Positions 3,442 through 53,696 of a stretch of 64,000 nt of DNA are shown one piece after another; positions within the stretch are counted from its first letter, which is position 1, and the number at the start of each line of letters is the position of its first letter. The stretch is taken from sequence record MK817115.1. One strand, written 5' to 3'. Under the pieces are notes generated by a model. The model had not been told where the DNA came from, ran no database searches, and saw nothing but the letters and a program-made list of their open reading frames with translations. The translations under genes were made by a program, and so were the position numbers. Source of the DNA: Escherichia phage vB_EcoM_phAPEC6.

Positions 3442-3449
3442 TTTTTTAA

Positions 3450-3478
3450 GGTCAAGCCTATGCTTGGCCTTTTCTTTT
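3450..3478 (+). terminator. Intrinsic terminator
   Basis: GGTCAAGC-CTAT-GCTTGGCC stem-loop followed by TTTTCTTTT. Confidence 0.6.
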
Positions 3479-3497
3479 AACTAAAATAAATACATCA

Positions 3498-3505
3498 TAT
3501 AAATC
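3498..3505 (+). promoter_or_regulatory. Late promoter-like TATAAATc box upstream of fibre gene
   Basis: TATAAATC about 20 nt upstream of ATG at 3526. Confidence 0.25.
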
Positions 3506-3525
3506 TATTCTGAGGAAATATTTAA

Positions 3526-5490: not shown

Positions 5491-5491
5491 T

Positions 5492-5523
5492 AAAAAAGGG
5501 AGAACTGATGTTCTCCCTTTTCG
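5492..5523. terminator. Bidirectional intrinsic terminator between convergent genes
   Basis: AAAAAA-GGGAGAAC-TGAT-GTTCTCCC-TTTTT. Confidence 0.7.
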
Positions 5524-5524
5524 T

Positions 5525-7047: not shown

Positions 7048-7050
7048 ATT

Positions 7051-7709: not shown

Positions 7710-7970
7710 TTATTCTCCTTTATCTTCTTGAGTTTCACTATCTTGTGATTCAGCTTCTTCTTTAGCTGCATCTTCTTGTGCTTTAATATCTTCAAGAGCT
7801 ACATTTGCAAAAGAAACAAATTTAGATACAACTGGAGCAACCTCAACAAGTTCTTCAACTTTAAAGGTGTTTCGTGCAACAGCAGCTTCCATGATTTTTG
7901 CAGCATTGATTAGGTCTAGAAGGGTTAGTTGAATTTGATTATTTTCTTGTTCCATTTTAATACTCTCCAT
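7710..7970 (-). CDS. Hypothetical acidic protein
   Basis: 86-aa ORF, acidic C-terminus. Confidence 0.4.
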   Translation of the reverse strand: MESIKMEQENNQIQLTLLDLINAAKIMEAAVARNTFKVEELVEVAPVVSKFVSFANVALEDIKAQEDAAKEEAESQDSETQEDKGE

Positions 7971-8019
7971 GTATATTGGTACATTAACTATTATATCATA
8001 TTTTTATAAGTTGTCCCAC

Positions 8020-8053
8020 TTATAAAAGAAGAGAACGGAAAATTCCGTTCTCT
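8020..8053 (-). terminator. Intrinsic terminator after VWA gene
   Basis: 9-bp stem AGAGAACGG / CCGTTCTCT with U-rich tail on minus strand. Confidence 0.55.
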
Positions 8054-8064
8054 TTATTTAGTAC

Positions 8065-9489
8065 TTAACTACGTTGACGCTTTTTATCAGCTTCATATTC
8101 GTAGTGTACAGTCTCACCAAATGGTGCAACTTTATTTGGGTTACTGTGAATCACGAACAGTGTTTTACAGTAGTTTGGATCACCCCATGACTGCCACGGT
8201 TCACCATCAGTAAACATTACAAGCTGTTTAGGCTTGTAGTTGTCGTTCTTCATATGAACCCATACTGCTTCAAAGTCAGTACCACCACCACCTTTTACTG
8301 GATATTCCAGAATCTTACGTTCTTCGCCAGTTTTGTAATCCTTTACAGTATAAACTTCAGTATCAAAAGTCATGATACGAATCTTAAACTGTTTGAATTG
8401 TTTAGTGATGCCAAGAACTTCACTAATGAAATCACGAAGCATATCTTCAGAAATAGACCCAGAAGCATCTAGTGCAATCGCAATATCAATATCATCATCT
8501 GGTTTCATCCCTGGGTAAATTGGATTACCATAGAATGAACCATTAGAACCAAAACCAGCACCCCATGAACGACGAGAAGGACTTTGATACGTTGCATCAG
8601 ACTTCAACCAACTACGAAGTGTACGTTGAAGTTTTGAACGCCAGTCAATCTTTGGTTCTTTAAAGTTGTTAATCATACGAGCGATTTCTGCTGGTGTACC
8701 ACCTGCACGTGCAGCATTCATCATTGCTGTTTTGAAATCATCCATATAATCACGTTTTTGCTGTTCACTTGAACCACCTTCTTGACCTTCTTGTGGAACG
8801 TCATGCTGGTCAATGGTAGTACCTTTTGGTTTACCCTTACCATCTTTAATATCACCAAAAGTACCGCGATTTTTACCTTCACCTTCACCGCCGCCACTTT
8901 GTGGTTGACCTTCACCTTCACCATCTTCTTTTTGTTCTTCTTCTTCAAGAAGAATGTAAATCTCTTCTGCGGTCATACCTTCATATTTTTTATCATACAA
9001 CCATGAACTTTGGATTTTTCCAATTTTCTCACGAACGATGATTTGGTTAATGGCATAATCCGCTGCACGGTTATAACGTTGTGGATCACGCATACCACGA
9101 CGAAGGAAGTGATCGTAAGCACAGTGTAGAATTTCATGACAAATTACAGCAATAAGGTTTTCATCAGTCAAACCTTCAGTCATTTCTTTTAATTGTTCGT
9201 CTGTAACTTCAGGATGCTTTTCACGAATAGCTTCTTCATATTCTTTCTTTTTAGATGGGTCTTGAATACCCATTACAAATTCTACGTTGTAGAATAGATG
9301 TTTACCATCAACTGCTAGAGTACGACACCATGTATTATTAGGAACTGGACGTAAACGTGAAGCGAGTACACCAAAGAATGGTGCAGTTAACATCAAAGAT
9401 GTACGAGCCAGAACCAGACGATCTTGACATTCTTTCTGGAGTGCCGGAGATACTTCATTGAATCTGGAAGTAGATTTGTTATCTGACAT
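8065..9489 (-). CDS. VWA domain protein with N-terminal HExxH metallopeptidase-like motif
   Basis: HEILHCAYDH (HExxH) in N-terminal half; MIDAS-like DASGS in C-terminal half; low-complexity G/E-rich linker. Confidence 0.7.
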   Translation of the reverse strand: MSDNKSTSRFNEVSPALQKECQDRLVLARTSLMLTAPFFGVLASRLRPVPNNTWCRTLAVDGKHLFYNVEFVMGIQDPSKKKEYEEAIREKHPEVTDEQLKEMTEGLTDENLIAVICHEILHCAYDHFLRRGMRDPQRYNRAADYAINQIIVREKIGKIQSSWLYDKKYEGMTAEEIYILLEEEEQKEDGEGEGQPQSGGGEGEGKNRGTFGDIKDGKGKPKGTTIDQHDVPQEGQEGGSSEQQKRDYMDDFKTAMMNAARAGGTPAEIARMINNFKEPKIDWRSKLQRTLRSWLKSDATYQSPSRRSWGAGFGSNGSFYGNPIYPGMKPDDDIDIAIALDASGSISEDMLRDFISEVLGITKQFKQFKIRIMTFDTEVYTVKDYKTGEERKILEYPVKGGGGTDFEAVWVHMKNDNYKPKQLVMFTDGEPWQSWGDPNYCKTLFVIHSNPNKVAPFGETVHYEYEADKKRQRS

Positions 9490-9520
9490 GTATATTTCCT
9501 CGTTTAGTTAAGATAAAAGA

Positions 9521-9552
9521 AGGATACCATTAGGCATCCTTCTTGTCAACAA
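9521..9552 (-). terminator. Hairpin with U-tract between MoxR and VWA genes (terminator or attenuator)
   Basis: GAAGGATGCC-UAAU-GGUAUCCUUC followed by UUUUAUC on minus strand. Confidence 0.45.
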
Positions 9553-9563
9553 CTCTTTGTTAA

Positions 9564-10889
9564 TTAGCCAAGAGAGCGTGCTTTACGTACAAGTTCAGAG
9601 TACTTAGCGATGAAATCTTTAAACGCTGGTACATCTTTAATGGAAATCGCAACCTTATGAAGCGTGATGGTACGAATTGCCAGTACTGCCAGTTCTGCTT
9701 GAGTTGCAGAGAAGTTATGGTCTAGGAAGGTGATGAAGTTGTTACACAGTTTACCCCATTCTTCCACTGGTAGACGTTGTTCTTGCTTCTCATTGAACAG
9801 GTCGATAATTTTATAAACCAAGTTCAGAGTGATAAAGTAGTTCGCAGAAATATCCAGCGTTGCGTCGATTTCTTTGATTTCACCAGACAGAATAGACATA
9901 GTATCTGGTAGTTTAGCAACGTTCTCAACGTACTCAATGTATTCAGTTGCAACACCTTCACCAACACGACCAGCAATCATTGCACGGAACACTTCTTTAT
10001 CAATTGTCTTAGTTTTCTTGAGATCTTCGTAGCGTGCTACTGCTTCCCATGAACGTGGAGAAGTACCACCACTGTGAGAAGGATCTTGTGGACTAAGTGT
10101 GTTAAAGTACTTAGAACCAGTGTTGTTGATGAACGCAACAGTTGCTGGGTTCAAACGTTTTGCAATCGCATAATCGTTAATCCAATCTTGATGATAAGGA
10201 ATCATCTCAATGTGAGTCATACGGTCACGCAGTGGTGTAGCAAGAGAGAAAGTTACACCGCCATCAGTTTCACGGTTACCTGCTGCAAGAATCAGTGCAG
10301 TCTTAGGTAGCTTCATCTCACCAACACAACGGTCGAGGATTAGCTGATAAGACGCTGCCTGAACAATAGGCATTGCAGAGTTAATTTCGTCAAACAGAAT
10401 AACACCTTTCCAATCTTCGGACAATTTCAGAACTTTAGGTGCAGCCCATACTACCGCAGTTTCAGCTACATAATCTTTTGCTTCGGCAAGCTCAGATTCT
10501 TTCAGAAGAGAACCGTCAGTTTTACGGAAAAGCTTCTCTGGTACTGGAATACCGCGAAGGTCACTTGGTTCGATTTGAGACAAACGGAAATCGATAAAGT
10601 TAGTATCTTGGTCGATTAGTTTTGCTTCAAATGCAGCCAGTTCACGGCGTAGCTGATCAGCATTTTCAGGGTCAGCTTCGATTTGTTGTTTCATGAACTC
10701 GATTTTAGCTACGTTATCTTTACGCAGTGGGTAATTTTCATCAGCGTATTGACGAGCGATTGCAGACTTACCGATACCTGGGCTACCCCAAATCATCAGG
10801 CTATCTTGAATCATGTCAGCTAGTGCCATTGCTTCTTTAGCTTTCTTTGGAGTCAGTTTAACGTTCAGGATATCGTTTTGAGTAGTCAT
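9564..10889 (-). CDS. MoxR-like AAA+ ATPase
   Basis: Walker A GSPGIGKS; Walker B ILFDEIN; adjacent to VWA partner as in MoxR/VWA pairs. Confidence 0.75.
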   Translation of the reverse strand: MTTQNDILNVKLTPKKAKEAMALADMIQDSLMIWGSPGIGKSAIARQYADENYPLRKDNVAKIEFMKQQIEADPENADQLRRELAAFEAKLIDQDTNFIDFRLSQIEPSDLRGIPVPEKLFRKTDGSLLKESELAEAKDYVAETAVVWAAPKVLKLSEDWKGVILFDEINSAMPIVQAASYQLILDRCVGEMKLPKTALILAAGNRETDGGVTFSLATPLRDRMTHIEMIPYHQDWINDYAIAKRLNPATVAFINNTGSKYFNTLSPQDPSHSGGTSPRSWEAVARYEDLKKTKTIDKEVFRAMIAGRVGEGVATEYIEYVENVAKLPDTMSILSGEIKEIDATLDISANYFITLNLVYKIIDLFNEKQEQRLPVEEWGKLCNNFITFLDHNFSATQAELAVLAIRTITLHKVAISIKDVPAFKDFIAKYSELVRKARSLG

Positions 10890-19701: not shown

Positions 19702-22365
19702 TTATTGAGTTTTCTCGATACGGATTGGTACGTAAATGAAGTTAATACTCTTAGTTGGTTGAATTGCAATATCCATCCAAAGTTCATTACGGTCAATACG
19801 CTCTGCGGTGTTGTTACTTTCATCACAAACCACTGCGAAGTTATAAAGACCCTGTTGTTGAACAATTTCAGCCAAGAAGCTATTAACTACACCACTAAAT
19901 TCCTGACGAGTACTTGGAGTATTCAAACGGAATAGGAATGGTTCGGAAATAATTTCTAGTTGACGACGAATATAAACAACTAAACGAGCAACGTTAACAC
20001 GACTTAGTGCAGAAGTTTGATTAGCAGATAGAGTTTTATCTCCATAAACAAGCAAACCACGGTTAGGACGCATTGCAATTGGGTTAATGTTGTTAGTATA
20101 CATAACGTCACGTTGACCTTGGTTGTATACTACTGGTTGATATTCACCTTCGCTGTTGATAAAACCAGTACTTGCAGCGTTTGTTACAACACCACGAGTT
20201 GTACCAGCAGGTGGATACCATACATAACTAACACTATCACTGTATGCATATGTACGCATTGCAATAGTACTACCAGGAACTGCAACTTCTTCACCATCAA
20301 CGTTAGTACTTAGACACCAACCCATATACTGAGCAGCATAATCATAAGCAGTTGTACGACCAACTGAACCGTTGCTTGGTGCATTGTTAGCATTAGTAGC
20401 CCATTGTTGTACAGCACTACCGTTTCCGGTTGGATTCAAACGTGCTGGAACGTCAGTAACAATAAATGCAGTTTCTTTACGATCAGTGTTTAAAGTTACA
20501 CATTCATCAAGTGTTTCAACGTAACCAGGTACACAAATTAGGTTAAAATCAATAAATTCAGAACGAATGTCATCATTACCAATAATAACAGCAGCTAGTG
20601 CTTCAACTACTAGTTGACGTTGTGCAGCACGACCAAATAGGCCAGCACCATCAAGACTTACACCACTAACAACTTCCCATTGACCATTAACCATTTTCTT
20701 AACAACACCTTCAGTGTTACCTAGGTCAACTGCAAGCATACCATTTTGATACAATGCCGCAGCAGGAACTTGGCTTGGGAAATTAAAGTCTTGGAAAATC
20801 ATACCATTTAGTGTACTTTGATCAGTACTGTCAAGTTTAACCCATTCACCATCAACGTTACGATAGAAATCATAACCATCAATGCCTTGAGACAAAGGAC
20901 AAACCCAAATTAAACGGTCAGCCGCTGGTTCATCAACTTGTACATATTTGTTTTCTTCTTGTACTAGATCCCATTCATCATTAGCAACATCAGCAACATA
21001 CATAGTTACAGTTAGATTATCGGAGTTCCCGAAATCATACCAGAGAGTTCCTTCTTTTGCTACACTACGTGGTACTGAATAACTAACACGGAAGTTATTA
21101 ACGTTAATTAGAGAGTAGTTGTTACTATCTACAGTTAGTTTTTGTAGTTCAGGTTCAGCAAAAATATCATCACCACTTTGTGTGATTTTGAAACTGTAAC
21201 CTTTTGTATTGGAAACAACTAAACCACCATTAGTTTCACGTTTAAATTTAAAACCATCGTTAATAATTTCAGCATTTGCATTTAGATTATTGATGATAGT
21301 TTGGGTATTAATAACACCGCCTTGTGGAACTGCTAGTACTTTAACTGATTTATTCAAATAAACAAAAGTCATATAACTATCAGCACCTGCTTGTTCAATA
21401 ATAGTTTCACCAAGTGGCAAAGCAGGAGCACTAATTGTTGTTAGTTTTGCACTTTGAATATAGAAAGAGAAACTCTTACTATCTTCATCAAAACGAGATG
21501 CGATATAACTATTGTTTAGTACACCACTTTTCGCTTCAATTTCTTGGAATGAATTACCAGTATATGCTGGTACAATATTCCAAACTTGAGTTAGGGATGC
21601 ATAACGTTTAATAACAAAACGAGTACCAAAATAGTTTGAACCATTTTGGGTGTAACCATCACGAATCCAAATGTTACCTTTTTCTACAGTTGAGCCAACT
21701 GGAACTTTGTTAATTGGTGATAGATAAGTTTCCATTTGCACTAGCCCAGAAGCAGAACGTTTATACATTAGCATCTGACCATTGCTTGGTTTGTAACGTA
21801 GAACTAAATCATCAACATTTAAACCTACTAGACTTACATCTTCAACTTCTTCAGCACTTACAATAGTTACTGGCTTAAGTTGCCAATCATAAAAACTGCT
21901 TGGACTATCTTTCTTCGCTACATACGCTTCTACTTGTGATTGTGCGGTATCAAACCACAAAGTACCATTGGATACTGGGCCAGTTGGTGCTTCAGCACTT
22001 GGTGCTAGTTGTGCTAGATCGATATCAGCACGAATTACATATGCACGGTTAGTAATGCCTAGATAAGAATATACTGCATGTAGGCCATATTCGTTTAGTT
22101 CATCACCTTGAACAACAGAACCGTTATTCATTTGAAAAATTGGTGTACCATAGGTATCAAGTGAGCTTTTTTGTGATGTTAGAAGCTGTAGTTTTCCAGC
22201 GTTTGCTTTAGTAGTTCCCGCAGCTATTGCACTGCTTCCTGGGACAAGTTTGTCTTCAGCAGTAGCGATTACAAATAGTGGTACAGTGCCAGGAGCAGCA
22301 GCGGTACTCATACTTTCATCAGTTACTGAAATGGAAACGCCAGGTGAGAGTAGATCTCCTGCCAT
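19702..22365 (-). CDS. Tail sheath protein
   Basis: 887 aa; N-terminus LLSPGVSISVTDES resembles the conserved LLSPG start of T4 gp18-type sheath proteins; synteny with tube. Confidence 0.75.
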   Translation of the reverse strand: MAGDLLSPGVSISVTDESMSTAAAPGTVPLFVIATAEDKLVPGSSAIAAGTTKANAGKLQLLTSQKSSLDTYGTPIFQMNNGSVVQGDELNEYGLHAVYSYLGITNRAYVIRADIDLAQLAPSAEAPTGPVSNGTLWFDTAQSQVEAYVAKKDSPSSFYDWQLKPVTIVSAEEVEDVSLVGLNVDDLVLRYKPSNGQMLMYKRSASGLVQMETYLSPINKVPVGSTVEKGNIWIRDGYTQNGSNYFGTRFVIKRYASLTQVWNIVPAYTGNSFQEIEAKSGVLNNSYIASRFDEDSKSFSFYIQSAKLTTISAPALPLGETIIEQAGADSYMTFVYLNKSVKVLAVPQGGVINTQTIINNLNANAEIINDGFKFKRETNGGLVVSNTKGYSFKITQSGDDIFAEPELQKLTVDSNNYSLINVNNFRVSYSVPRSVAKEGTLWYDFGNSDNLTVTMYVADVANDEWDLVQEENKYVQVDEPAADRLIWVCPLSQGIDGYDFYRNVDGEWVKLDSTDQSTLNGMIFQDFNFPSQVPAAALYQNGMLAVDLGNTEGVVKKMVNGQWEVVSGVSLDGAGLFGRAAQRQLVVEALAAVIIGNDDIRSEFIDFNLICVPGYVETLDECVTLNTDRKETAFIVTDVPARLNPTGNGSAVQQWATNANNAPSNGSVGRTTAYDYAAQYMGWCLSTNVDGEEVAVPGSTIAMRTYAYSDSVSYVWYPPAGTTRGVVTNAASTGFINSEGEYQPVVYNQGQRDVMYTNNINPIAMRPNRGLLVYGDKTLSANQTSALSRVNVARLVVYIRRQLEIISEPFLFRLNTPSTRQEFSGVVNSFLAEIVQQQGLYNFAVVCDESNNTAERIDRNELWMDIAIQPTKSINFIYVPIRIEKTQ

Positions 22366-40781: not shown

Positions 40782-43571
40782 TTATAAATCACGGAAACGA
40801 TTTGGTGTGTTTAAGCGGTACATTGAGTATAATCCCAATCCACGCATAATCTCACCTGCCCAGAAACCAAAAAACATACCATTATCAGTACCTTCTCTAA
40901 CTGCTGGACTCCATGAACCATTCATTGGTGAACCTGGATTTACAATAACATAATTCTTTTGAAGTTCGAGAACTAAGTTATCAGCGAGTGTTGTTAGACC
41001 TTCTATTTTACATCCAGCCAATCCAGCAGCACAAGCCCCAGCTAACCACAACCCACACATATGACCTGTAAAGTCCCAATCTGGACCTTCAACTGTGCCA
41101 TCTTTATTGAAGATTGTTGGTGAACGACCATCATTATCTTTTTGAAATTGAATTAAAAAGTGAATCCAATTCTCACAAAATTCAACAAGATCTGCTGGTG
41201 GTTCAATTCCTCTCTCTGCGAGTTCTTGCCATGCTCTGGCAGCCCCAAAGAACGCACGTGGTTCATACCCACTCCATGCTTGATCACCCCAATGTAGCAT
41301 AGTAAATGTATCTGGTTCACCATATTTTAAGTTATCCCAGCGGTTCCAAACATATGCTTGTGCACACGGACCAACAGTACCGAATTGTTGAGTAAACCAT
41401 GTTTGGGAATCTTTCATAAAGCTTAACATGTTTCCTAAGCGTGTGTTATCTACTGGCTGGTCTTTAAAACAATATATCACAGGATATTGATAACCTGGAT
41501 ACGGTAAACCACGCCATCCTGAATACTGGTTCGCATACGGGTCAGTGATGTTAGAAAATGGTATTGTTCCTGGTGTGTAATGCAATGAGTTTAACAAATA
41601 ATCCTTGATTACACAATCCCCTAACTGTGCAGTATATGGTGATTCACCTGCAATTGTTATTGAAAATGTCATAGTATAGTCATCACCGTCAGCATCCGTG
41701 TATAATTCTGGAATGTCATTAATACAATACCAATCAATTATTGCAGCAACACCATCTACTGGGGTTGTATCAGGTAAAATAGTAATATCTTCTAGTTCAC
41801 TATAAACTGGTGCATCTGGTCTTGGGTCAGAACTTGGATGATTTGGCTGATACCCAGATAAACGTAATGTATCGGAACTTAGTGTGATTGTAGTCCATTC
41901 CCCGTGTGTTGCAGGAATCATCCACCACCATCTCCAACCATTATCATCTACAATTCTTATATTGTAATCATCTTCATATGAACGATAGGTAAAAGATTTA
42001 ACTTCAGACTTATTTGTTGCTAATAGCCAAAATCCAATAACAGCACCATCATCTTCACCACAAACTAACTGATTAATGGTATCGCGGCGTGTAACTAATA
42101 TATCAGTACTATATATCATTTCGGACGTTGCTGCACCATAAGGAACAACAATTCTATTATCAGCAATTATATAAGGGGAACCATCTGCTTTCTTTTCTCT
42201 AACAAATGCACTTAAAGGTGTTAATGAATGTGTGATATTTTGGTCTTTACTTTCCGGTAAGCCACAACGATAACGAACAACATCATGGTCATTTTTTGTT
42301 TTTGACAATTCCAGTACTGGTTTAAATGATAACGGCTTACCATCATCACATACACCACCATAGTCTACAAGTAATTTAGAATCAGCATTGACCCTGAACC
42401 AAATAGCTTGTTGTTCCATAGTACTTTGTGCACTTTGGTCTTGCCTGATAGTAATATATCCTAGAGAATTTCTACCAAACTTAGCAATAGCATCACTAGG
42501 ATAAAAATATTCATAGGAAATACCATCAGTGAATGGTGTGGTTACAATTGTACTTTGTCTGAAAAATTTATCTCTGGAGTCAATATCACCATAAGCATAA
42601 CACGTTAGTAGTGAACATTTCCAACCCAAATAATGTTTTCTTTCTTTTGTTATTTTATATAACAAATAAGAAGCATCACTAAACCATAATTCTGCATCTG
42701 ATGCGTTATCAGCAAATTCCAAATCAATTGGAACATGAAGAGGGCGGTTGTGTTGCATTTCATTTCGTTGAATTATCACACCACCATATTCTACTGGTTG
42801 ACGATTTGCAAAATTTAATTTATATACACCATTAATTGTTGTATTCTTTAATTGAACAGTTCCTTTTTCAGATTCGTCAAAACCTTCTGCTAAAATATTA
42901 CCATCCCAGTCGATTTTTCTACCCATGAAATCGATAATCCAGTCAACATCATATTGTTCACCTGGTGTATCCCAATCAACACTACCATCTGGTAATAATG
43001 CTTTTACTGAAGCATTTATTTGGTTCCATGCTAACGCACCTTTGAATGCAAATGTCACTTTATCCAAGAACTGACCATAATATGGTGCACCATGTGGTAT
43101 TTTACATTGACCATTAGTAAATGTAAATTCTACTCCCTTGAAACCACCATGTGTGGGCCAGCCATCATCAGCTAAAGGCCAGTTAGCCAATATAGGTTCT
43201 TTGGCATTAACTATCCAGTTACATTGTAGTGGTGTAGGTGGATCTGGTAATTCACGTCCAGCATAAAAGTACTGATGATATGCGTCCCAATACCACTTTG
43301 CCTTATCTAAAAACATTGGATCATTTGTTGCCAGATACGCATAAATGTATCCTAAAATTAATAGACTTTGACCTTCTGTTGTCCCGTCACCGTTTGGTTG
43401 ACCTTCCATTGCAGAATAGTTAATAAAATGACGGTTGTTCGCCAAAACACCCTGATTATTCACCACATAATGTTGTACTGTTGGGTCTATTGTATCACCA
43501 GTATTTCTTTCAATAAATTTGTGATGCCCATAAAGAAGTTGTACAATATTATCAATATTATTGTTTAACAT
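40782..43571 (-). CDS. Large aromatic-rich protein (possible carbohydrate-active or virion-associated enzyme)
   Basis: 929 aa, Trp/Tyr-rich (WRWWWMIPATHGEW); no definitive motif. Confidence 0.5.
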   Translation of the reverse strand: MLNNNIDNIVQLLYGHHKFIERNTGDTIDPTVQHYVVNNQGVLANNRHFINYSAMEGQPNGDGTTEGQSLLILGYIYAYLATNDPMFLDKAKWYWDAYHQYFYAGRELPDPPTPLQCNWIVNAKEPILANWPLADDGWPTHGGFKGVEFTFTNGQCKIPHGAPYYGQFLDKVTFAFKGALAWNQINASVKALLPDGSVDWDTPGEQYDVDWIIDFMGRKIDWDGNILAEGFDESEKGTVQLKNTTINGVYKLNFANRQPVEYGGVIIQRNEMQHNRPLHVPIDLEFADNASDAELWFSDASYLLYKITKERKHYLGWKCSLLTCYAYGDIDSRDKFFRQSTIVTTPFTDGISYEYFYPSDAIAKFGRNSLGYITIRQDQSAQSTMEQQAIWFRVNADSKLLVDYGGVCDDGKPLSFKPVLELSKTKNDHDVVRYRCGLPESKDQNITHSLTPLSAFVREKKADGSPYIIADNRIVVPYGAATSEMIYSTDILVTRRDTINQLVCGEDDGAVIGFWLLATNKSEVKSFTYRSYEDDYNIRIVDDNGWRWWWMIPATHGEWTTITLSSDTLRLSGYQPNHPSSDPRPDAPVYSELEDITILPDTTPVDGVAAIIDWYCINDIPELYTDADGDDYTMTFSITIAGESPYTAQLGDCVIKDYLLNSLHYTPGTIPFSNITDPYANQYSGWRGLPYPGYQYPVIYCFKDQPVDNTRLGNMLSFMKDSQTWFTQQFGTVGPCAQAYVWNRWDNLKYGEPDTFTMLHWGDQAWSGYEPRAFFGAARAWQELAERGIEPPADLVEFCENWIHFLIQFQKDNDGRSPTIFNKDGTVEGPDWDFTGHMCGLWLAGACAAGLAGCKIEGLTTLADNLVLELQKNYVIVNPGSPMNGSWSPAVREGTDNGMFFGFWAGEIMRGLGLYSMYRLNTPNRFRDL

Positions 43572-43572
43572 A

Positions 43573-44109
43573 TCATACTCCTGCTCTAATTAATGCACCG
43601 TACCATGTAACTCCTTTATCATATGTTTCTAATGAAATAATATCTTTTTCACCAATTTCATAAGAAAGAACAACTGGTCTGTTATATGACCATTTAACAT
43701 TAGAACCCCAATTAACTAGGTTTGAACCTGTTTGTTGTGTTAATAGGATGGTAATTGAATAAACTTCAGTAGGAGCCGTACCAATCGAAATAGTAGTATT
43801 TCTATCAGATAAATTAATATTAAAAACAGAATTGCCCGACAGTGGATTAATTAAAATATTATTAGAACTTAATACATTATATAACTTATTACTTGCACTA
43901 TCATATAATGTTACCCATTCTGTTTCATGATTCTCGTTAGTAGCTTTAGCTTTTATCTTAACATTATTTTCAGAATCAGTCATTCCAGTCCATCCAGATA
44001 TAATAAAAGAACTGTTTTTATTAGTTCCGAATGATGCAATCACAGAATCACTAAGAGAACTATCTTCACCATCAATAGATCCGAGTACTGACAATGTTAA
44101 AACCATCAT
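43573..44109 (-). CDS. Hypothetical protein (possible structural)
   Basis: 178-aa ORF; its 5' end overlaps 63-aa ORF 44072-44263 in another frame. Confidence 0.4.
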   Translation of the reverse strand: MMVLTLSVLGSIDGEDSSLSDSVIASFGTNKNSSFIISGWTGMTDSENNVKIKAKATNENHETEWVTLYDSASNKLYNVLSSNNILINPLSGNSVFNINLSDRNTTISIGTAPTEVYSITILLTQQTGSNLVNWGSNVKWSYNRPVVLSYEIGEKDIISLETYDKGVTWYGALIRAGV

Positions 44110-44277
44110 TTTTAATGTCTACACCAGTAGCACCAGAAAAATTATTTTGAAATTTAATAACTCCGGTAGTGTGGATATCTGTGAAAATTTGTTGTGCCAT
44201 ACTTAATCCTTGTGTTAATTTATATTGAGTATTTATTGAGTGTAATGGCATTTTTAGTACCATTACACTTGTATATG

Positions 44278-45910: not shown

Positions 45911-46420
45911 TTAACCACCATACTTTGACTTGTATGTTTCAAGTGATAAAGATATACGATTTTGCTTTTTAATTCTTTCATCAATATCCTTTGAATTCTT
46001 CACACTTCGGTATACGTCAGCTAATAAATTATAATCTTCTTTATTTGAGCTATGCTGTGTCCAACCTATGTCTGTTTTAATACGAACATTTGCTTTATTT
46101 GACGAGTAAAAGAAACTGAAACCATTTGACCCATCAAAAATATCAAAAGTATCTACCCAATCACCATAAGGAAAACTCATCGGGACTGACTCGTGGTCGA
46201 TTGTGATATCCGATAAATTTTTTGAACAGTACTTCGCAAAGTGATAAACAATTGGATCACATTTAGATAATTCATATTTGTATTCAATGATAGTTTTTCT
46301 ATTAGCATCATTGATAGCATATTCTTTCATCAATGGGCTTTTTTTGATGATAAGAGTCCACAGAAACGATTCTAATCCGGTTTCATCAACTTTTTGTTTC
46401 TTTTTGAAAAATGAAATCAT
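45911..46420 (-). CDS. Hypothetical protein, tandem paralog family member 3
   Basis: Shares D.RK.(I/L)IEYKYELSK-type motif with the two upstream genes. Confidence 0.5.
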   Translation of the reverse strand: MISFFKKKQKVDETGLESFLWTLIIKKSPLMKEYAINDANRKTIIEYKYELSKCDPIVYHFAKYCSKNLSDITIDHESVPMSFPYGDWVDTFDIFDGSNGFSFFYSSNKANVRIKTDIGWTQHSSNKEDYNLLADVYRSVKNSKDIDERIKKQNRISLSLETYKSKYGG

Positions 46421-46938
46421 TTATATAAACCCTTAATTTTCTGTCTATTATGTATATCATTTTGCTGGATTTTCAATTTAGTAAGGTTGTTTCTTACACC
46501 TTCAACTCCACGCATTATTTGTAACATAATTAGTGATTCGTCATATGTTAGTACATTGCTATTATTATCGATATATACTTTCACTCCACTTTCAAGATAA
46601 TCATTTTCTTTGGAGTTAAAGTTTCTAATAGCAAACTTAACGCCATTTGATGTATCACTGAAAACATATCGTTCCGCACCGTAGAATGTTTTTCCACGAA
46701 ATAAACCGCCGTCTTCCCACTTCCAACGACTAGATTCATAATCATTAACGTAATCAATGATTAAAGAAAGTAAAGGGTGTTTGCTCAATTTATATTTTGC
46801 ATCTAACAGGATACGTCTATCATTATCTGTGGTGATAATATCCTTTAGTGAGTAGCTTTTAGATATAATTTTAAAGATAATTTCATGCCAAATTAAAGTA
46901 CTGTTTTGTTTTCCAACTGATCCAAAAAACATATCCAT
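46417..46938 (-). CDS. Hypothetical protein, tandem paralog family member 2
   Basis: DNDRRILLDAKYKLSK motif. Confidence 0.5.
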   Translation of the reverse strand: MDMFFGSVGKQNSTLIWHEIIFKIISKSYSLKDIITTDNDRRILLDAKYKLSKHPLLSLIIDYVNDYESSRWKWEDGGLFRGKTFYGAERYVFSDTSNGVKFAIRNFNSKENDYLESGVKVYIDNNSNVLTYDESLIMLQIMRGVEGVRNNLTKLKIQQNDIHNRQKIKGLYK

Positions 46939-46944
46939 TCCTCA

Positions 46945-47511
46945 TTAGTATAAATCAGTAATGTCTTTGTATGCATTAATCTGTTTTTGTTGTAATGAAA
47001 GTTCATTGAGTTTAGTTACCATTTTATCTACACCAACACGTGTATAGAAAATAATAAATGAATCTAAATTGCCTAGAGTAATTCTTGAACTGTAATTTGA
47101 AAGTTTTCTTGCATAAACATAAATTTCTTCTTCACTTGGTAAACGTTTCTCAATCGGCCAGCTTTCCACACCATTCGGCTCATAATCGATTTCAAATTCA
47201 ACTCCCATCACTGTGTCTTGAATGAGATCCGTATATGAACCACCGTAAAAATACTCTCTTGGTTTGGCTCTCCAACGAGGACTAAATGGGTCAGATGCGT
47301 ATTCTTTTACAAATTTGTAAAAGGACATTTTACTGAGCATATACTTCATCTCAATTAGTGCTTTGCGGTCATCATCAGTTTTAAACTCTGCTTTGAGCGA
47401 TGGACTTTTACACAGTAACTTAACTAAATTGATGTACATCTTTAATGTACGTTGTTCTTTCATTTCTTTGATTTTGTGACGTTTTGGTGGCGGTAATAAA
47501 GATTTGACCAT
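46945..47511 (-). CDS. Hypothetical protein, tandem paralog family member 1
   Basis: DDDRKALIEMKYMLSK motif. Confidence 0.5.
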   Translation of the reverse strand: MVKSLLPPPKRHKIKEMKEQRTLKMYINLVKLLCKSPSLKAEFKTDDDRKALIEMKYMLSKMSFYKFVKEYASDPFSPRWRAKPREYFYGGSYTDLIQDTVMGVEFEIDYEPNGVESWPIEKRLPSEEEIYVYARKLSNYSSRITLGNLDSFIIFYTRVGVDKMVTKLNELSLQQKQINAYKDITDLY

Positions 47512-47544: not shown

Positions 47545-47572
47545 AAAAGAAAAGCCCGTCAATAGACGAGCT
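47545..47572 (-). terminator. Intrinsic terminator
   Basis: AGCUCGUC-UAUU-GACGGGCU (one G-U pair) followed by UUUCUUUU on minus strand. Confidence 0.5.
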
Positions 47573-47578
47573 TTAAAT

Positions 47579-50308
47579 TTATTTCCAACGTGTACCTGGA
47601 CCTGATGGTACACCAGTACTGGCAGGTATCGCTGAACCACGTTTCGTTGTACTTGGACGATATGTCAAAAAACGAGTTACTTTTTCTGTATCAATTGAAG
47701 TTATTCCTGAAGTTCCAGTAACTATCTTACCAATGTAAGTGCTAGTTAAAGATTCATCAATTGTTTCAGTACTAATAACATATGACGCTTTCTTAGTATT
47801 CCTGTTCATTTGTATATACAAATAGAACGTAGTATTAGCTGGGTTACTTTTTACAGTACTTAAATCAACACTTTGTATAGGTAGTCTGTCGAAAATTCCA
47901 CCTAAAAACACCGGAACTTCACGTGTAAAGTACACTGAGAATCCTTGTGCAACGTCTTGTGATACTACCACAATCTTTTCTTTAACGCTACCATTTCCAC
48001 TAATTAAACCATCCATTTCAGCAGATGTTGTACCAAAAACGCTGAATACAGATTTGGTTTGATAGTCAGAATCTTGAAAATTGTAATATCCAAAACCAAC
48101 ACCAGGAATAACACCATGTTGATATGCTGCACCAAGTTGGATGTAACTAGATGATAAAAAACGATTTGATGTTATGACACCATCTACTGTTTTAGCTATC
48201 ATCATCTTAAATTGTGCATTACCTGGTTGTGAAAATTGATGAACAGCATCAACACCAATGTAACCAAATCCTGAATATTTTGCAACTGTTAGACCAGTAC
48301 AACGTTTCATATATGCTTCAGTAATAATTCCTGTAACAGAACTAAGTGTCTCATATCTAGTACTCACCAATGTAGCTGAAGTTATGTTAGTTCCAGATAA
48401 TACAACATCAACTTCGGCATAGATTGCATAACCTTGGTTATTGTTAAGATTATATGCTGAAACTACTGCGATGGATTTAGAAAAAGTATTATCAGGTACA
48501 TAATATAATACAATTTGTCCAGATAGTGTGCCAACAATGCCAGAGTTTCCTATATTAGCAAAAATATCTTGTTTTAATGATTCTAATACCGTTGGTTCTA
48601 TTGTATATGTTTCATCAAATTCTAAAGTATCTGGGTTTAATAATCCACCACTTGTTTTATATACACCTTCAATGAATGATGTTCCATAGCATCTAACACT
48701 ACCATCGGTATCAACAAGAGAAATCATAGCAGTGTATGTAAAATCATCGCCTATTTGTTTACGATTAGATTGTGGTGCAAAACCATTTAATGTAGTATTA
48801 TTTTGAACTGAGTTATATTGATATGTTGGTTGTGAACCTATTTCAGAAAAAACAGTATTATTATAATTATATGTTACATCATCATACGTACCAGAACATG
48901 CTAATAATATTTTTCTATTATCGATGAAACGTACACCTAAAAGGTTTGCACCAACAGCACTACCAAAAACTGGTAAAACGTTTGCATTTATAACGTTACT
49001 TGCGGTTCTAGTACTGGCAACCCATGAATCAAACGGTGTACCACTAACCTTATATCGTTGTAGACCATAAAATTCAGTTGAACTCCATCTAAATTTAGAT
49101 GCAAATACCAAACCATCTTTAGTTTGACATAAACCACCTGCGTTTCCTAATACACCAGCAGCAGTTGTCCCTGTGAAGTTGACCATATTAATTTCAAATG
49201 GGTTAGAAACTTGAAATCCATTATTATATGAAACAGTTGCAGGTGCACGAGCACTACCATCTAGTGACATAGATTTTGAGTTTATATTATAAACAAAACT
49301 TATTCCAGTACCATAAACTGTTGAAATATACAAAGGTGTAACCATTCGATGTGTTGGATATAAAGTTACACGTATTTTTGATAAATCAGTACTAACGTTG
49401 GCTTGAATGTTAAAGTCTGTATAGTCTGAAAATTCTACACGTGATACTGGTGATGTAACTTCGAATAATGAATCCGAGCTAGTACCAACACTATATAATT
49501 TATCGAACACTCTTATGTTATTAGATGCAGAATAACTTGTGTTTCGAACAGTTTGACCTGATAACCCAGTAACTTTTGTTAATGATGCCATTGAGCTTGC
49601 TTTCACATCACTTAGCTCTACTGTATAAATTGAAAGTGCTAATCCTAAATTAGAAACACTTTTATCTTTACACCAAATATAAACCTTTGTCCCAACAATA
49701 TGTGTATATATTGGCATATCATTACCAAAAGAAGTACTTGGCACTTTAGCATGAATATGTGATATTTCGTTAAATGTGCCATTGGTTATAGTAAAAATAT
49801 AATTATCTTCAGTACTTAAACATCCAAGCATCTCATAACCATTAGAGCCAATAAAATACTTAATATTTTCAGTACTACTCATAATTGAAGGTTTATACAT
49901 TGAATTGGTTGAAATAACACTTTCTTGTGAAATCATAGTTATATTTCGGAGTTCTCGTATAAATGAATAATAAAAACCTTTAGTACTACCATTGGTTCCG
50001 CTACGCAGAACAACGGCGGTTCCATCATCTTCAATAATTGTTGGCTGAACTACTTGGTCACTTGACATAGGTGTAGCACCTTCATACGACCCACTTACGT
50101 TTAATGGTAAGTAATCCATTTCTCCTACACGTGATATAGGCAACATATCTAAAATACTTTGAACTTCTGAACGCTTATATATTGGATATTGAACAATTCC
50201 AGTATTGGCATTCGGTGAGGTTCCATTAAAAGTACGCATAGCGTACCTTTGTCCAATTGCCAAGTTCCCAAGGATCTCGGCACTTCCTATAATTCGTTTT
50301 GATGACAT
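47579..50308 (-). CDS. Tail fibre or receptor-binding-like protein, paralog A
   Basis: About 909 aa from internal start MSSKRIIG (RBS AAGGAAAAG); N- and C-terminal blocks shared with 50924-53620 (KSNPANTTFY; TGTSGIT...RPS). Confidence 0.55.
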   Translation of the reverse strand: MSSKRIIGSAEILGNLAIGQRYAMRTFNGTSPNANTGIVQYPIYKRSEVQSILDMLPISRVGEMDYLPLNVSGSYEGATPMSSDQVVQPTIIEDDGTAVVLRSGTNGSTKGFYYSFIRELRNITMISQESVISTNSMYKPSIMSSTENIKYFIGSNGYEMLGCLSTEDNYIFTITNGTFNEISHIHAKVPSTSFGNDMPIYTHIVGTKVYIWCKDKSVSNLGLALSIYTVELSDVKASSMASLTKVTGLSGQTVRNTSYSASNNIRVFDKLYSVGTSSDSLFEVTSPVSRVEFSDYTDFNIQANVSTDLSKIRVTLYPTHRMVTPLYISTVYGTGISFVYNINSKSMSLDGSARAPATVSYNNGFQVSNPFEINMVNFTGTTAAGVLGNAGGLCQTKDGLVFASKFRWSSTEFYGLQRYKVSGTPFDSWVASTRTASNVINANVLPVFGSAVGANLLGVRFIDNRKILLACSGTYDDVTYNYNNTVFSEIGSQPTYQYNSVQNNTTLNGFAPQSNRKQIGDDFTYTAMISLVDTDGSVRCYGTSFIEGVYKTSGGLLNPDTLEFDETYTIEPTVLESLKQDIFANIGNSGIVGTLSGQIVLYYVPDNTFSKSIAVVSAYNLNNNQGYAIYAEVDVVLSGTNITSATLVSTRYETLSSVTGIITEAYMKRCTGLTVAKYSGFGYIGVDAVHQFSQPGNAQFKMMIAKTVDGVITSNRFLSSSYIQLGAAYQHGVIPGVGFGYYNFQDSDYQTKSVFSVFGTTSAEMDGLISGNGSVKEKIVVVSQDVAQGFSVYFTREVPVFLGGIFDRLPIQSVDLSTVKSNPANTTFYLYIQMNRNTKKASYVISTETIDESLTSTYIGKIVTGTSGITSIDTEKVTRFLTYRPSTTKRGSAIPASTGVPSGPGTRWK

Positions 50309-50324
50309 CTTTCTTTTCCTTAAT

Positions 50325-50912
50325 TTACCAACCAATTGTACCAGTTTCTGATGGTTTTCCAGTACTGACTGGGAATGAAGAACCTTTTTGTGTAACACTA
50401 GGTCTATATGTACTAAATCTGGATACTTTATTAATGTTTATATTTGTAATACCACTTGTACCAACGGTCAGTGTTCCAATAAACATTATAATTTCAGATT
50501 CTTGTATTTGTGTTGGTGATATTTTATAAATTGGTTCACCGAGAACTAACGTTGCATATACGTATTGTGTTTGTGTTCCAGATGAAACAGTTGAAGCAAA
50601 AATAGAAACTGCTGGAAATTTATAAAGATAACCACCAATAAATGATGGTATCTGTCTATTAAATGTAAGACTATAGCCTGATGAAGTAATATTTAGACTA
50701 GCGTCATCATACAATTCTCCGTATTGTGTAAGTGGTAATCCATTGACAATAAAGTTAACTTCATCTTTGGTAATAGAGGGGAATGTACATTCCCCATTTG
50801 AATTTGTTGGGTAATAAGTCATATTATTACCTAATACACCAAGACCAGTACTTTTACCCTGAACTGTAACTTGTTGCATTGCCTTAAGGTCTGCTCTTAT
50901 TTTATATGCCAT
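50325..50912 (-). CDS. Short fibre-related protein carrying only the shared C-terminal module
   Basis: 195 aa; C-terminus GTLTVGTSGITNININKVSRFSTYRPSVTQKGSSFPVSTGKPSETGTIGW parallels C-termini of both flanking large genes. Confidence 0.5.
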   Translation of the reverse strand: MAYKIRADLKAMQQVTVQGKSTGLGVLGNNMTYYPTNSNGECTFPSITKDEVNFIVNGLPLTQYGELYDDASLNITSSGYSLTFNRQIPSFIGGYLYKFPAVSIFASTVSSGTQTQYVYATLVLGEPIYKISPTQIQESEIIMFIGTLTVGTSGITNININKVSRFSTYRPSVTQKGSSFPVSTGKPSETGTIGW

Positions 50913-50923
50913 TATGTAATCCT

Positions 50924-53620
50924 TTACCAGTTTATGGTTCCTGTTTGTGATGGTAGACCGTAGCTAACTGGGAACGATGAACCTGCTGATTCAAGTGAAG
51001 CACCAAATATATCTAAACGGGAACGTTTTTGTATATTAATTGTTTCGATTTGAATTGCATTAGTTTGAATTGTACCTATCCAAAAAATATTATATGCAGT
51101 TGTCCCTGTTTCAGAAATAACATCAGTAGTTATGTAATAGTTTGCCAATCCTTGTTCCAATTTAACATATACATAAAATGTTGTATTTGCTGGATTAGAC
51201 TTAATAGTTCTCAAATCAATATTTGAAACTGGTAGTGAAAATGACTTACCTGAAAGAATAACTGGTGTTTCCTCTGTAAAATATACAATAAACCCTTGAG
51301 CAACGTCCTGGGATACTACGTTAATTGGGCTACCTTGTGCAGTCCAGTTATTATAGTCTGCAATCGTTGTTCCATATTTTTTGAATGTCATTTTATTTGA
51401 GTAATCCATTGGTTCAAAAATTCCAAAACCAATACCAGGTAATGCTGCTGGTTGACTTCCTTGTTCATAACTGGCATGAGATCCAGTAATTATAAAACTT
51501 GTAAATTGTGCAGTTGATTTAGTTACATATGCTCTAAATTGATGAGTTGCAGTATTACCTATTGTTGGATGTGATAATGGGTCAGAACCACCAATGAAGT
51601 AGAATGAACCACCATCATATATGGTCAAACCAACAGAAGAAGATGCAATCGAACCATTCCCAGTTGGTGTAAAGTTATCACCATACGTATTCTCAAGTAC
51701 TAAACGCTTAAATGTAATAGATGTAATATTACCAACTCTAGTATTGACATTAACTTCAGCAATTCTAATATAGTTTCTATAATCATTAGTAATTGTACTC
51801 AACATAACAAAAGCTGGAATGTCTGTTTGTTGTGGAACAAATAGTGTCATATCACGGTATGCTTGTGCTGATAAATTCCAATCACTTAGAACTTTGGCAT
51901 ATTCAGTATTTCTAAAATTGTCCAGTACTGATTGTGTAACGCTTATAATTCCTGTGCCATTTAAGTTTTTATCATAGGATAATGATTGTGAATAACGTTG
52001 CCCAACCATAAAAATACCACCATTGGTTGTGACAGTTGACCCAGAAATACTACTAATAAAAATTCTATTATTTGCATTATCATCAACATTAGCACGTTCA
52101 ACTGTAGGTTCATAACCTTGTATTGTTCCTAAAGATAATGATTTAAATGTAAAATTAGGAGTACTTTTATGAACTGCATATGATGGTCTAAATCCACCAC
52201 TACCTGATGCACGTGAATATTGTTTAGTACTGTTATCTGGTAGTAATTCTACACCATTAATAAATGAACCAACCGCTGAACCAAAAGACGGGCGAACTAT
52301 ACCACCTTTGAAGTCAGTAGAAAGTACAGCACGGACATTCAGCATACTATAAACTATTTGAATAGGAAACTTAGCTTTTTGCATAAGTAATGGTTCTGCT
52401 AAGTTTGGACATGTAGTACAAAAAGCTTCACCAGAATTCAAATAAAAATATGAACTATAAATGTTTCTTGCATTTGCATGGTTATACAATGGATCGTTAT
52501 TTAAAACGTTACCAGTAGGAACTAATGCCGAACCAGTATTAGTTATAACTAATGGTGCTTGATATGAACCAATATCGTTACCCGCATCTAATGTACATTG
52601 TTTAGTACTCATATTGAACACAAAACTGTAACTATGCTGTGGACGTGTATTATATGTTGCCATTGTAAACCAAGCGTCCCCGTTCATTCTAAAGCGGAAA
52701 TTCTGCGTTCCTGGCTGCTGTGCAACATATAAATCAATTGATGTCATGTAAATCCCAATACCACGTAGATTTTGTGGAACATACACATAAGGTTTATCAG
52801 CAATATTTGTTGATGTTACCTGATTAGTAATAACCATATTATTTTGTGCAGAATATGTCGTGTTATAAAATGTTTTAGTAGTCCATCCAGTAATTCGAGT
52901 TGCAGTATAAGTACCATTGCTTATATTATAAACAACTTTTACAACAACTAATTGTAGTTGGTTATTTTCATTAAGTACGTTAAAAACATATATAGAACCA
53001 TCTTCTGCCATCATAGCATATTCAATACCACCTTCAGGTGATATATCTGCTTGGTTAACGAAAAAACCAGTATGCAATTTATCATCTAATGTACCATTGG
53101 TAATTGATATGAACAAACCATTAGTACTGTTAGAAGTATCAATATATCTACCGAGTAAAATATTTGGATCAGTATTGTATAAACCAATCGCAACTCTATT
53201 TGAACCAAAAAACCCAGGCTTGTATTGACGACTAGTGTTAATTGTACGGCTCATGTCATCAACTGATAATGCGTTAGCCAAATATGAATAAAATAATCCC
53301 TCAACACTACCGTTTGTCCCACTACGTAAAAGTACTAGTGTACCATCGTTTTCTAATAAAATTTTATTTCTACGTTGTGACTGGTTTTCTGATGCACCAT
53401 TGAAATCCCCAGAAACACCCGCAGGTAGATAGTTTTGTGAACCATAATGGGAGATTGGCATCATACTTACTATATCTAGTACTTCATCTCTGGAATAAGT
53501 ATCTAATTCCAAGTTACCGTTGGAATCAAAAACTTGTTCATTTATTCCTTGAATTGTTCTTTTACCATTAACTGTCACATTATGTGTGACATCTAAGCCA
53601 CCATATATTTTCTTTGACAT
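50924..53620 (-). CDS. Tail fibre or receptor-binding-like protein, paralog B
   Basis: 898 aa; shares N-terminal (YLP.GVSG, LLRSGTNGS) and C-terminal blocks with paralog A. Confidence 0.55.
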   Translation of the reverse strand: MSKKIYGGLDVTHNVTVNGKRTIQGINEQVFDSNGNLELDTYSRDEVLDIVSMMPISHYGSQNYLPAGVSGDFNGASENQSQRRNKILLENDGTLVLLRSGTNGSVEGLFYSYLANALSVDDMSRTINTSRQYKPGFFGSNRVAIGLYNTDPNILLGRYIDTSNSTNGLFISITNGTLDDKLHTGFFVNQADISPEGGIEYAMMAEDGSIYVFNVLNENNQLQLVVVKVVYNISNGTYTATRITGWTTKTFYNTTYSAQNNMVITNQVTSTNIADKPYVYVPQNLRGIGIYMTSIDLYVAQQPGTQNFRFRMNGDAWFTMATYNTRPQHSYSFVFNMSTKQCTLDAGNDIGSYQAPLVITNTGSALVPTGNVLNNDPLYNHANARNIYSSYFYLNSGEAFCTTCPNLAEPLLMQKAKFPIQIVYSMLNVRAVLSTDFKGGIVRPSFGSAVGSFINGVELLPDNSTKQYSRASGSGGFRPSYAVHKSTPNFTFKSLSLGTIQGYEPTVERANVDDNANNRIFISSISGSTVTTNGGIFMVGQRYSQSLSYDKNLNGTGIISVTQSVLDNFRNTEYAKVLSDWNLSAQAYRDMTLFVPQQTDIPAFVMLSTITNDYRNYIRIAEVNVNTRVGNITSITFKRLVLENTYGDNFTPTGNGSIASSSVGLTIYDGGSFYFIGGSDPLSHPTIGNTATHQFRAYVTKSTAQFTSFIITGSHASYEQGSQPAALPGIGFGIFEPMDYSNKMTFKKYGTTIADYNNWTAQGSPINVVSQDVAQGFIVYFTEETPVILSGKSFSLPVSNIDLRTIKSNPANTTFYVYVKLEQGLANYYITTDVISETGTTAYNIFWIGTIQTNAIQIETINIQKRSRLDIFGASLESAGSSFPVSYGLPSQTGTINW

Positions 53621-53654: not shown

Positions 53655-53662
53655 TATTTATA
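53655..53662 (-). promoter_or_regulatory. T4-type late promoter-like TATAAATA box upstream of fibre paralog B
   Basis: Exact TATAAATA on minus strand about 34 nt upstream of ATG. Confidence 0.35.
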
Positions 53663-53669
53663 TACATAA

Positions 53670-53692
53670 TAAAAAAGCACCCAACGGGTGCT
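53670..53692 (-). terminator. Intrinsic terminator after nrdG
   Basis: GCACCC-loop-GGGTGC with U-run on minus strand. Confidence 0.5.
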
Positions 53693-53696
53693 TATG

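Follow-up and report, generated by a model that had tools for sequence, protein, structure and literature searches.

Here, we describe three adjacent genes in a 64,000-nt stretch of DNA from Escherichia phage vB_EcoM_phAPEC6 (sequence record MK817115.1; hereafter, the window). All three lie on the minus strand, and we refer to them as A (53620-50924; 898 aa, 98.62 kDa), B (50912-50325; 195 aa, 21.2 kDa), and C (50308-47579; 909 aa, 98.8 kDa, built like A). Our analyses make it reasonably probable that the trio is a late operon of three paralogs encoding shoulder-anchored beta-propeller proteins, and that B, the middle paralog without propellers, is derived by deletion and is built into the phage particle. 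An initial annotation of this DNA had described the same genes as fibre genes that are related only at their ends, with B as a C-terminal-only minigene. The open reading frames (ORFs) and the similarities that it reported hold; the end-only homology, the C-terminal-only B, and the term "fibre" do not.

The window belongs to the jumbo myovirus genus Asteriusvirus, "Rak2-like" phages with genomes of 350-380 kb. Over 6.3 kb around the trio, it matches BF17 at 100% identity and PBECO4 (99.7%), UB, SP27, and others at 99.4-99.7%, and in every annotated relative, the three genes carry the label "hypothetical protein." The ORF list confirms three co-oriented minus-strand ORFs. The mechanical ORF of C begins at GTG 50398, but the start of this gene is most likely ATG 50308, based on an AAGGA ribosome-binding site, the parallel between the resulting N-terminus (MSSKRIIG) and that of A (MSKKIYGG), and the annotation of this start in G17 and Sharanji. 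A similar question arises in the record of Salmonella phage 7t3, where the annotation begins the third gene at an upstream start, which gives 949 aa and an overlap with the end of the minigene (7719-10568 of the compared stretch); the downstream ATG, the choice made in G17, is more likely to be correct than the annotated start. The intergenic gaps are short (11 nt between A and B, 16 nt between B and C), and each gene sits in a different reading frame, with a Shine-Dalgarno sequence and a stop codon of its own. Thus, B is a separate gene and not a read-through product, and we consider a fusion of B to A or C, via read-through or frameshift, unlikely. A tblastn search of the window found no family members beyond A, B, and C, and the whole BF17 genome has three family places.

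The alignment of A with C spans the full length of both, with 28% identity over 946 columns (E = 6e-64). Residues 44-120 and the last ~130 residues are 43-50% identical and the centre 15-25%, so that the variable centres diverge faster than the ends. The conserved ends seen initially are therefore real, but the differing centres are diverged homologs rather than unrelated sequence. The C-terminal ~120 residues of B are similar, far beyond chance, to those of C (43% identity, E = 6e-24) and A (36% identity, E = 1e-16). B is nonetheless more than a C-terminal module: residues 1 to ~68 also correspond to the N-terminal ends of A and of the long relatives (E = 5e-7 with A; E = 1e-11 with GAP32 gp144), and what B lacks are the YLPxGVSG and LRSGTNGS blocks, save for a degenerate remnant. 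The full-length homology of A and C, together with the matches of B to both, bears out the proposal that the genes are paralogs from duplication. Within A, the C-terminal tail (aa 871-898, ending ...GSSFPVSYGLPSQTGTINW; 50927..51010, minus strand) has the highest conservation of all regions (0.74), and G880, G888, P890, and W898 are invariant. Among PHROG profiles, A and C match phrog_3573 (E = 1.7e-274 and 8e-266, respectively), B matches phrog_26864 over residues 1-195 of 195 (E = 4e-115), and all three also match phrog_7449 (SPN3US gp168 type). The trio thus belongs to these groups of jumbo-phage proteins, which have no function assigned in PHROG.

To place B, we compared the trio with its orthologs in other Rak2-like phages, which lie in the same order in CBB (gp147/148/149), GAP32 (gp143/144/145), pEa_SNUABM_12 (gp141-143), and fHe-Yen9-04 (g137-139). 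The CBB paper already lists gp147-149 as paralogs, and both reciprocal similarity and synteny after nrdD-nrdG assign A, B, and C to this triplet. A is the ortholog of CBB gp147 (46% identity), and C is the ortholog of CBB gp149 and GAP32 gp145 (35-38% identity). At the post-nrdG site, CBB, GAP32 (Mimasvirus), and pEa_SNUABM_12 and fHe-Yen9-04 (Eneladusvirus) all encode three full-length paralogs of ~900-945 aa, whereas the middle gene of Asteriusvirus encodes 195 aa, with the propellers deleted. The long-short-long arrangement with a 195-aa middle gene is found in G17, Sharanji, 7t3, Turkey5, ph0011, and vB_Ec-M-J. For both halves of B, the best match is the middle paralog, with residues 1-67 aligning to 1-67 and residues 79-195 to 798-916 of CBB gp148. 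In neighbor-joining trees limited to the N segment and C module of Rak2-like phages, B groups with the full-length middle paralogs (bootstrap 0.985 for the N segment, 0.91 for the C module, and 1.0 for both concatenated). The 195-aa genes are monophyletic (0.94), and the A type (0.86) and C type (0.97) also form clades; a tree of the C module only, over all lineages, has low support and long branches. Since both halves of B group independently with the same middle paralog, the trees argue for an in-frame internal deletion and against the domain shuffling that was first suggested. B is therefore the middle paralog after one in-frame deletion of ~730 residues, an event that we place in the ancestor shared by Asteriusvirus and the 7t3-like Salmonella phages.

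The shortened gene has been maintained. In relatives down to 46% identity, its product remains 195-202 aa long, with 40 invariant columns that include the whole C-terminal tail motif. The ratio of nonsynonymous to synonymous substitution rates (dN/dS) is 0.10-0.41 for B, with synonymous sites saturated, compared to 0.04-0.36 for A and 0.05-0.41 for C. B is under purifying selection and not decaying. Gene A has a further peculiarity. Between BF17 and G17, its synonymous difference is 0.37, while that of B is only 0.02 and that of C 0.08. This excess indicates that recombination has swapped A between phages that are near-identical elsewhere, as one would expect of a host-range determinant.

The AlphaFold2 model of A, built from a 44-sequence alignment, has a predicted local distance difference test score (pLDDT) of 86.3 and a predicted template modelling score (pTM) of 0.79. 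It consists of an N-terminal anchor segment (aa 1 to ~75, with low confidence in the first ~70 residues), predicted tandem beta-propellers with about a dozen four-stranded blades (aa ~85-770), a ~95-residue beta module (aa 771-870; 51011..51310, minus strand), and the conserved tail, for which the pLDDT of the monomer model is <50. B comprises an N segment (aa 1-68), a degenerate linker (69-78), the beta module (79-168; pLDDT ~90), and the conserved tail (169-195). In C, the module and tail cover about aa 785-909 (nt 47956-47582, minus strand). Foldseek matched A to double-propeller proteins, sialidases, and GH43 and PL24 enzymes, all with low template modelling scores, and the predicted propellers resemble those of lectins and glycosidases. 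In the models, the beta module is a beta-sandwich plus helix that matches the shoulder domains of the phage p2 receptor-binding protein, SPP1 gp22, and TssK. Shoulder domains are trimeric modules that anchor a protein by clamping a loop of a baseplate partner, and the fold is used by the receptor-binding proteins of lactococcal phages p2 and 1358, the long tail fibre of cyanophage A-1(L), and the type VI secretion protein TssK. PDB sequence and profile searches detected no sequence homology of the trio to solved shoulder-domain proteins; the p2 and 1358 receptor-binding proteins, the A-1(L) fibre, and TssK share the fold with the trio by prediction.

These models do not agree with the fibre-type structure, with beta-helix or chaperone domains, for which the initial annotation had suggested a check. 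We rejected a classical tail fibre or tailspike with an intramolecular chaperone, given the globular blades, the lectin and glycosidase propellers as best matches, and a Pfam search of the trio in which no family passed the threshold and which showed no fibre, Peptidase_S74, or chaperone domain. The trio also differs from known shoulder proteins. In the p2 and 1358 receptor-binding proteins, the A-1(L) fibre, and TssK, the shoulder is N-terminal and is followed by a neck and a C-terminal head, whereas in the trio, the propellers precede a C-terminal module. The binding part is a tandem beta-propeller rather than the jelly-roll head of shoulder-type receptor-binding proteins, and unlike the p2/1358 shoulder, that of the trio is apparently split by a nested insertion. 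A short natural form, P0077, joins YLPPNVSG straight to GWIVYFTDETP, and based on this direct join of two strands, the propellers are probably nested within the shoulder module, between the YLPxxVSG and GF-IVYFT strands. The conserved 27-residue tail may fold or dock only in the assembled oligomer. For B, there is a precedent in SPP1 gp22, likewise a stand-alone shoulder-fold protein, which is encoded beside tail tip genes; unlike gp22, B descends from a large paralog and has an extra N-terminal segment as well as the conserved tail of 27 residues.

Members of this family are virion components. The phAPEC6 virion proteome can be linked to the window via exact masses (98.62 and 105.34 kDa) and gene order, and it includes gp323c (98.62 kDa, 4 peptides), which has the exact computed mass of A. 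In CBB, gp148 and gp149 are structural proteins confirmed by mass spectrometry. SPN3US gp168, which is homologous to A (E = 9e-34), is a tail protein according to mutant-particle proteomics and is annotated as a baseplate/fibre protein. Together, these data support the earlier proposal of receptor-binding or adhesin-type virion proteins.

The family extends well beyond the Rak2-like phages. When 1.84 billion representative proteins were searched with a B profile, 426 members were recovered (E < 1e-3). Their lengths are bimodal: among 148 sequences from the best 150 of the 426, 64 have 881-1020 aa and 60 have 131-260 aa. Many of the short forms carry an N-terminal NPHxxTxxQxG fibre-type motif. 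Cultured carriers are Rak2-like, Agricanvirus, Xoo-sp14, EL, Goslar, SPN3US-like, and other jumbo phages. Adjacent family sets are found in Xoo-sp14 (241, 978, and 971 aa), Deimos-Minion (gp18, 420 aa and without a propeller; gp19, 1163 aa; gp20, 1151 aa), Goslar (gp28, 169 aa; gp27, 161 aa, a weak match; gp26, 867 aa), and EL (ORF114 and ORF115, plus a doubtful ORF116). In every lineage with strong detection, tblastn with a short form found three places per genome; a locus search of IMG/VR with the short-form alignment and two single short forms returned no loci. Altogether, three-member tandem sets appear to recur, with none, one, or two members lacking propellers.

Goslar, a nucleus-forming phage, provides the virion data for short members. 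Its gp26-gp28 genes are adjacent, among tail-fibre genes, and all three products are found in virions. gp26 is a long member (E = 6e-78), gp28 is a 169-aa member without propellers (E = 6e-26), and gp27 is a probable diverged member, which makes one long and two short proteins compared to two long and one short in the trio; the Goslar short forms carry the NPHxxT fibre-type N-terminal motif. The quantitative virion proteome gives 12.8 copies of gp026, 13.8 of gp027, and 14.3 of gp028 (ranges 8.5-22), with 61% peptide coverage of gp028. Thus, short family members can be genuine particle components, equimolar with the long one. The Goslar structure preprint does not discuss gp26-gp28, and its peripheral baseplate density has no protein assigned. 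In the compared stretch, gp26-gp28 (3872-7487) sit between two YomR-like tail-fibre genes. Goslar also offers a conceptual parallel in DUF7941 gp22/gp23, where a long protein and its truncated paralog have an assembly module in common and co-assemble. However, DUF7941 proteins are an unrelated family that forms filaments of hundreds to thousands of copies, and we rejected membership of the trio, which has no Pfam match at E <= 1 beyond chance level. We likewise rejected the trio as the source of the "hairy whiskers" of phAPEC6 and CBB, since the models are globular and GAP32 has the family while the CBB authors report no whiskers there; those authors also left the whisker genes unassigned.

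In phiKZ, gp131-gp135 are tandem paralogs with a common attachment region that differ in their beta-propeller (seven blades in gp131) or lack one. Four of them (gp131, gp133, gp134, and gp135) form a hetero-hexameric fibre base at the baseplate periphery, joined by the shared domain. The common region of the phiKZ proteins is N-terminal with a helical bundle, unlike that of the trio. Profile searches did not detect direct homology to phiKZ gp131-135, gp145, or gp146: hmmsearch with the A and B profiles gave no match to these proteins, and the hhalign probability was <1%. A broadened module profile gave one weak match to the gp131 family (E = 2.8e-4), and the literature ties SPN3US gp168 to phiKZ ORF145 and gp131 at only 16% identity. 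The architecture of the trio, in predicted models, is analogous to that of the gp131 family in its sharing among paralogs and its propellers.

The three genes are likely transcribed as one late unit, framed by a terminator and a ATAAATACA promoter upstream of A-B-C and by another terminator downstream. The upstream element is the intrinsic terminator of the nrdD-nrdG unit (53675..53693, minus strand), a G+C-rich stem-loop AAGCACCC-GTT-GGGTGCTT followed by a T-run. It is also annotated in G17, is kept upstream of gene A in most relatives, and shields the trio from early transcription. As the initial annotation had noted, a late-promoter-like box precedes the cluster: TATAAATA, with core ATAAATACA (53655..53662, minus strand), is T4-type and Rak2-like and lies 34 nt upstream of the ATG of A. 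TATAAATA occurs once in the AT-rich window, compared to 10.7 +/- 3.4 expected copies (at least one in 100 of 100 shuffles), and this scarcity suggests selection against stray late promoters in a region of mostly early genes. The core ATAAATACA is kept 38-43 nt upstream of the first gene in 10 phages (from Asteriusvirus, Mimasvirus, and Eneladusvirus, plus the unclassified Salmonella phage 7t3), while its flanks drift. On the minus strand of the window, six of eight ATAAATA sites are 35-57 nt upstream of ORF starts, the tail sheath gene included, and the CBB paper predicts ATAAATA as the late promoter, with 35 sites before structural genes. TATAAATA thus combines a T4-type consensus box, the correct distance, and retention in relatives. 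The interpretation of the box as a promoter is well supported by sequence comparison, based on its unique copy, its conservation across genera, the sites before other ORFs, and the CBB prediction. The gene for the phage late sigma factor is outside the window. As an internal positive control for the motif, the tail sheath gene (19702-22365; 887 aa; phrog_10581; Pfam Phage_sheath_1C) has ATAAATA 57 nt upstream of its ATG. The trio is closed by an intrinsic terminator (47551..47574, minus strand) with a 10-bp stem and a T-run, which is annotated in G17. This terminator overlaps a near-consensus sigma-70-like promoter (47562-47534, minus strand; TTGACG-17-TATAAT, 11 of 12) for the next, unrelated gene cluster.

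Based on these results, we propose that three full-length copies were present in the ancestor of the Rak2-like phages, and that the middle copy then lost its propellers, which would leave B as a bare anchoring subunit, expressed and kept by purifying selection. The shoulder modules would oligomerize and dock on a tail or baseplate partner, with the 27-residue tail becoming ordered on assembly, and the fast-evolving propellers presumably contact host surface glycans. B would be in the particle, most likely at its ancestral place beside A and C, possibly in a 1:1:1 hetero-oligomer formed via the three shoulders, with two propeller heads rather than three.

Several observations weigh against this model. 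The phAPEC6 virion proteome (62 proteins) shows only the A ortholog, with B and C undetected; the virion mass spectrometry of CBB does not include gp147; and B itself has never been detected in any virion. The virion check suggested by the initial annotation thus places A and its homologs in particles but not B or C in phAPEC6, although that proteome is a shallow study, which missed C as well as B. In addition, the p2 receptor-binding protein and TssK, both homotrimers, carry their shoulder at the N-terminus and not, like the trio, at the C-terminus, and we identified neither catalytic nor sugar-binding residues in the propellers. The folds are those of monomer AlphaFold models, with low confidence in the N-terminal ~70 residues and the tail, and the late timing of the unit is read from sequence motifs. 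As for the recurring sets, Goslar gp27 is a weak assignment (hhalign probability 70%), and the third gene of EL is in doubt.

How the three proteins would be arranged can be taken further, if tentatively. There is an appreciable possibility, though we would not call it probable, that the three genes encode the three chains of one baseplate adhesin, a heterotrimer or other 1:1:1 hetero-oligomer, and that this module for host recognition is conserved among jumbo phages as different as the Rak2-like, Agricanvirus, Xoo-sp14, Goslar, EL, and SPN3US-type ones. All three anchor chains would be kept, while the number of heads would be tuned by propeller deletion or insertion, with three in CBB, two in Asteriusvirus, Xoo-sp14, and Deimos-Minion, and one in Goslar. 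A 1:1:1 hetero-oligomer is favored by the recurrence of three genes, by the loss of propellers but never of shoulders, and by the Goslar stoichiometry, and the hetero-hexameric fibre base of phiKZ provides a precedent.

Since the solved shoulder proteins that we matched are all homotrimers, a serious rival is that A, B, and C form separate homotrimers at separate or competing sites, with B as a propeller-less cap or filler. We regard this as somewhat unlikely, and the same holds for the role that B would then have, which would be to keep the middle docking site occupied and the baseplate intact or to tune the number of propeller trimers. Such an arrangement has a precedent in the stand-alone SPP1 gp22, would suit the detection of a subset of the paralogs in each mass spectrometry study, and is compatible with the Goslar range of 8.5-22 copies, which also fits 18, i.e., six homotrimers of each protein. 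It leaves unexplained, however, both the three-gene count across many lineages and why propellers but never the shoulder module are lost, and the tandem fibre paralogs of phiKZ do hetero-oligomerize via their common domain.

We find it improbable that these are shuffled tail-fibre genes with a C-terminal tip or chaperone block, and that the minigene is an alternative tip, an assembly chaperone, or a decoy, roles that the initial annotation had considered, and lies outside the particle. A small gene beside a fibre gene commonly encodes a chaperone (familiar examples are T4 gp38/gp57A and lambda Tfa), the neighboring 929-aa and 178-aa proteins (D929 and E178) are annotated as tail and tail-fibre proteins, and B is not in the phAPEC6 virion list. 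But the trio has neither a fibre-like fold nor a Peptidase_S74 or chaperone domain, and its module matches anchoring shoulder domains rather than tips or chaperones. Moreover, B carries the N-terminal segment too, and the common phylogenetic origin of its two halves speaks against shuffling. The presence of Goslar gp028 in virions, at the copy number of the long member and with high peptide coverage, argues against a chaperone or decoy, and conserved ends with a variable centre are the reverse of a variable distal tip. Least credible is a decaying, functionless B that is kept only through its operon position: its origin in a large deletion and its absence from the phAPEC6 mass spectrometry data would suit a remnant, but this reading is largely refuted by the intact frame, conserved length, dN/dS, own ribosome-binding site, and invariant columns of B, and by the wide occurrence of comparable short forms.

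The paralogy of the CBB orthologs and their presence in virions are already published. In the literature that we searched, we did not find the fold, the nested-propeller architecture, the origin and maintenance of the minigene, or the recurring three-gene sets with variable propellers. Host recognition by jumbo phages is poorly understood, and these genes are called hypothetical in essentially all genomes of Asteriusvirus, a genus that includes phage-therapy candidates against pathogenic E. coli. Our analysis gives the trio a testable identity as predicted, anchored beta-propeller adhesins in which the anchor is separated from an exchangeable part. This exchangeable part probably sets host range, in keeping with the swap of gene A between near-identical phages, and the minigene finds an explanation as an "anchor-only" derivative that arose naturally. 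A hetero-oligomeric design is suggested by the recurring sets of three genes and by the equimolar long and short forms of Goslar. If this is true, it would help to interpret unmodelled baseplate density in recent cryo-electron microscopy maps of jumbo phages and could explain part of the peripheral-baseplate density in Goslar-type and phiKZ-type phages. It would also guide engineering, with propellers swapped onto a constant anchor.

The surroundings of the trio hold some further features. Upstream, the junction appears to be a variable spot. In vB_Ec-M-J, there is a gap of ~1.3 kb between nrdG and gene A with no annotated gene (2688-4000 of the compared stretch), while in Turkey5 (3492-3896 of the compared stretch), the nrdG position is labelled "antiviral protein," and upstream of gene A, a different hairpin stands in for the usual terminator. 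Immediately after the trio, behind the sigma-70-like promoter at 47562-47534, three small paralogs in tandem (169, 173, and 188 aa; phrog_7868 and phrog_18641) at 45911-47511 represent another local triplication. A second late-type unit, with no sequence kinship to the trio, follows at 40782-44263. Its ATAAATA at 44236 is 36 nt upstream of a 42-aa ORF (ATG 44200) that corresponds to the phAPEC6 virion protein gp315c (4.66 kDa). Next in the unit come a 178-aa "tail fiber protein" (phrog_32568) and then a 929-aa "tail protein" (phrog_2871; 40782-43571), whose mass of 105.34 kDa is that of the phAPEC6 "tail fiber" gp314c.

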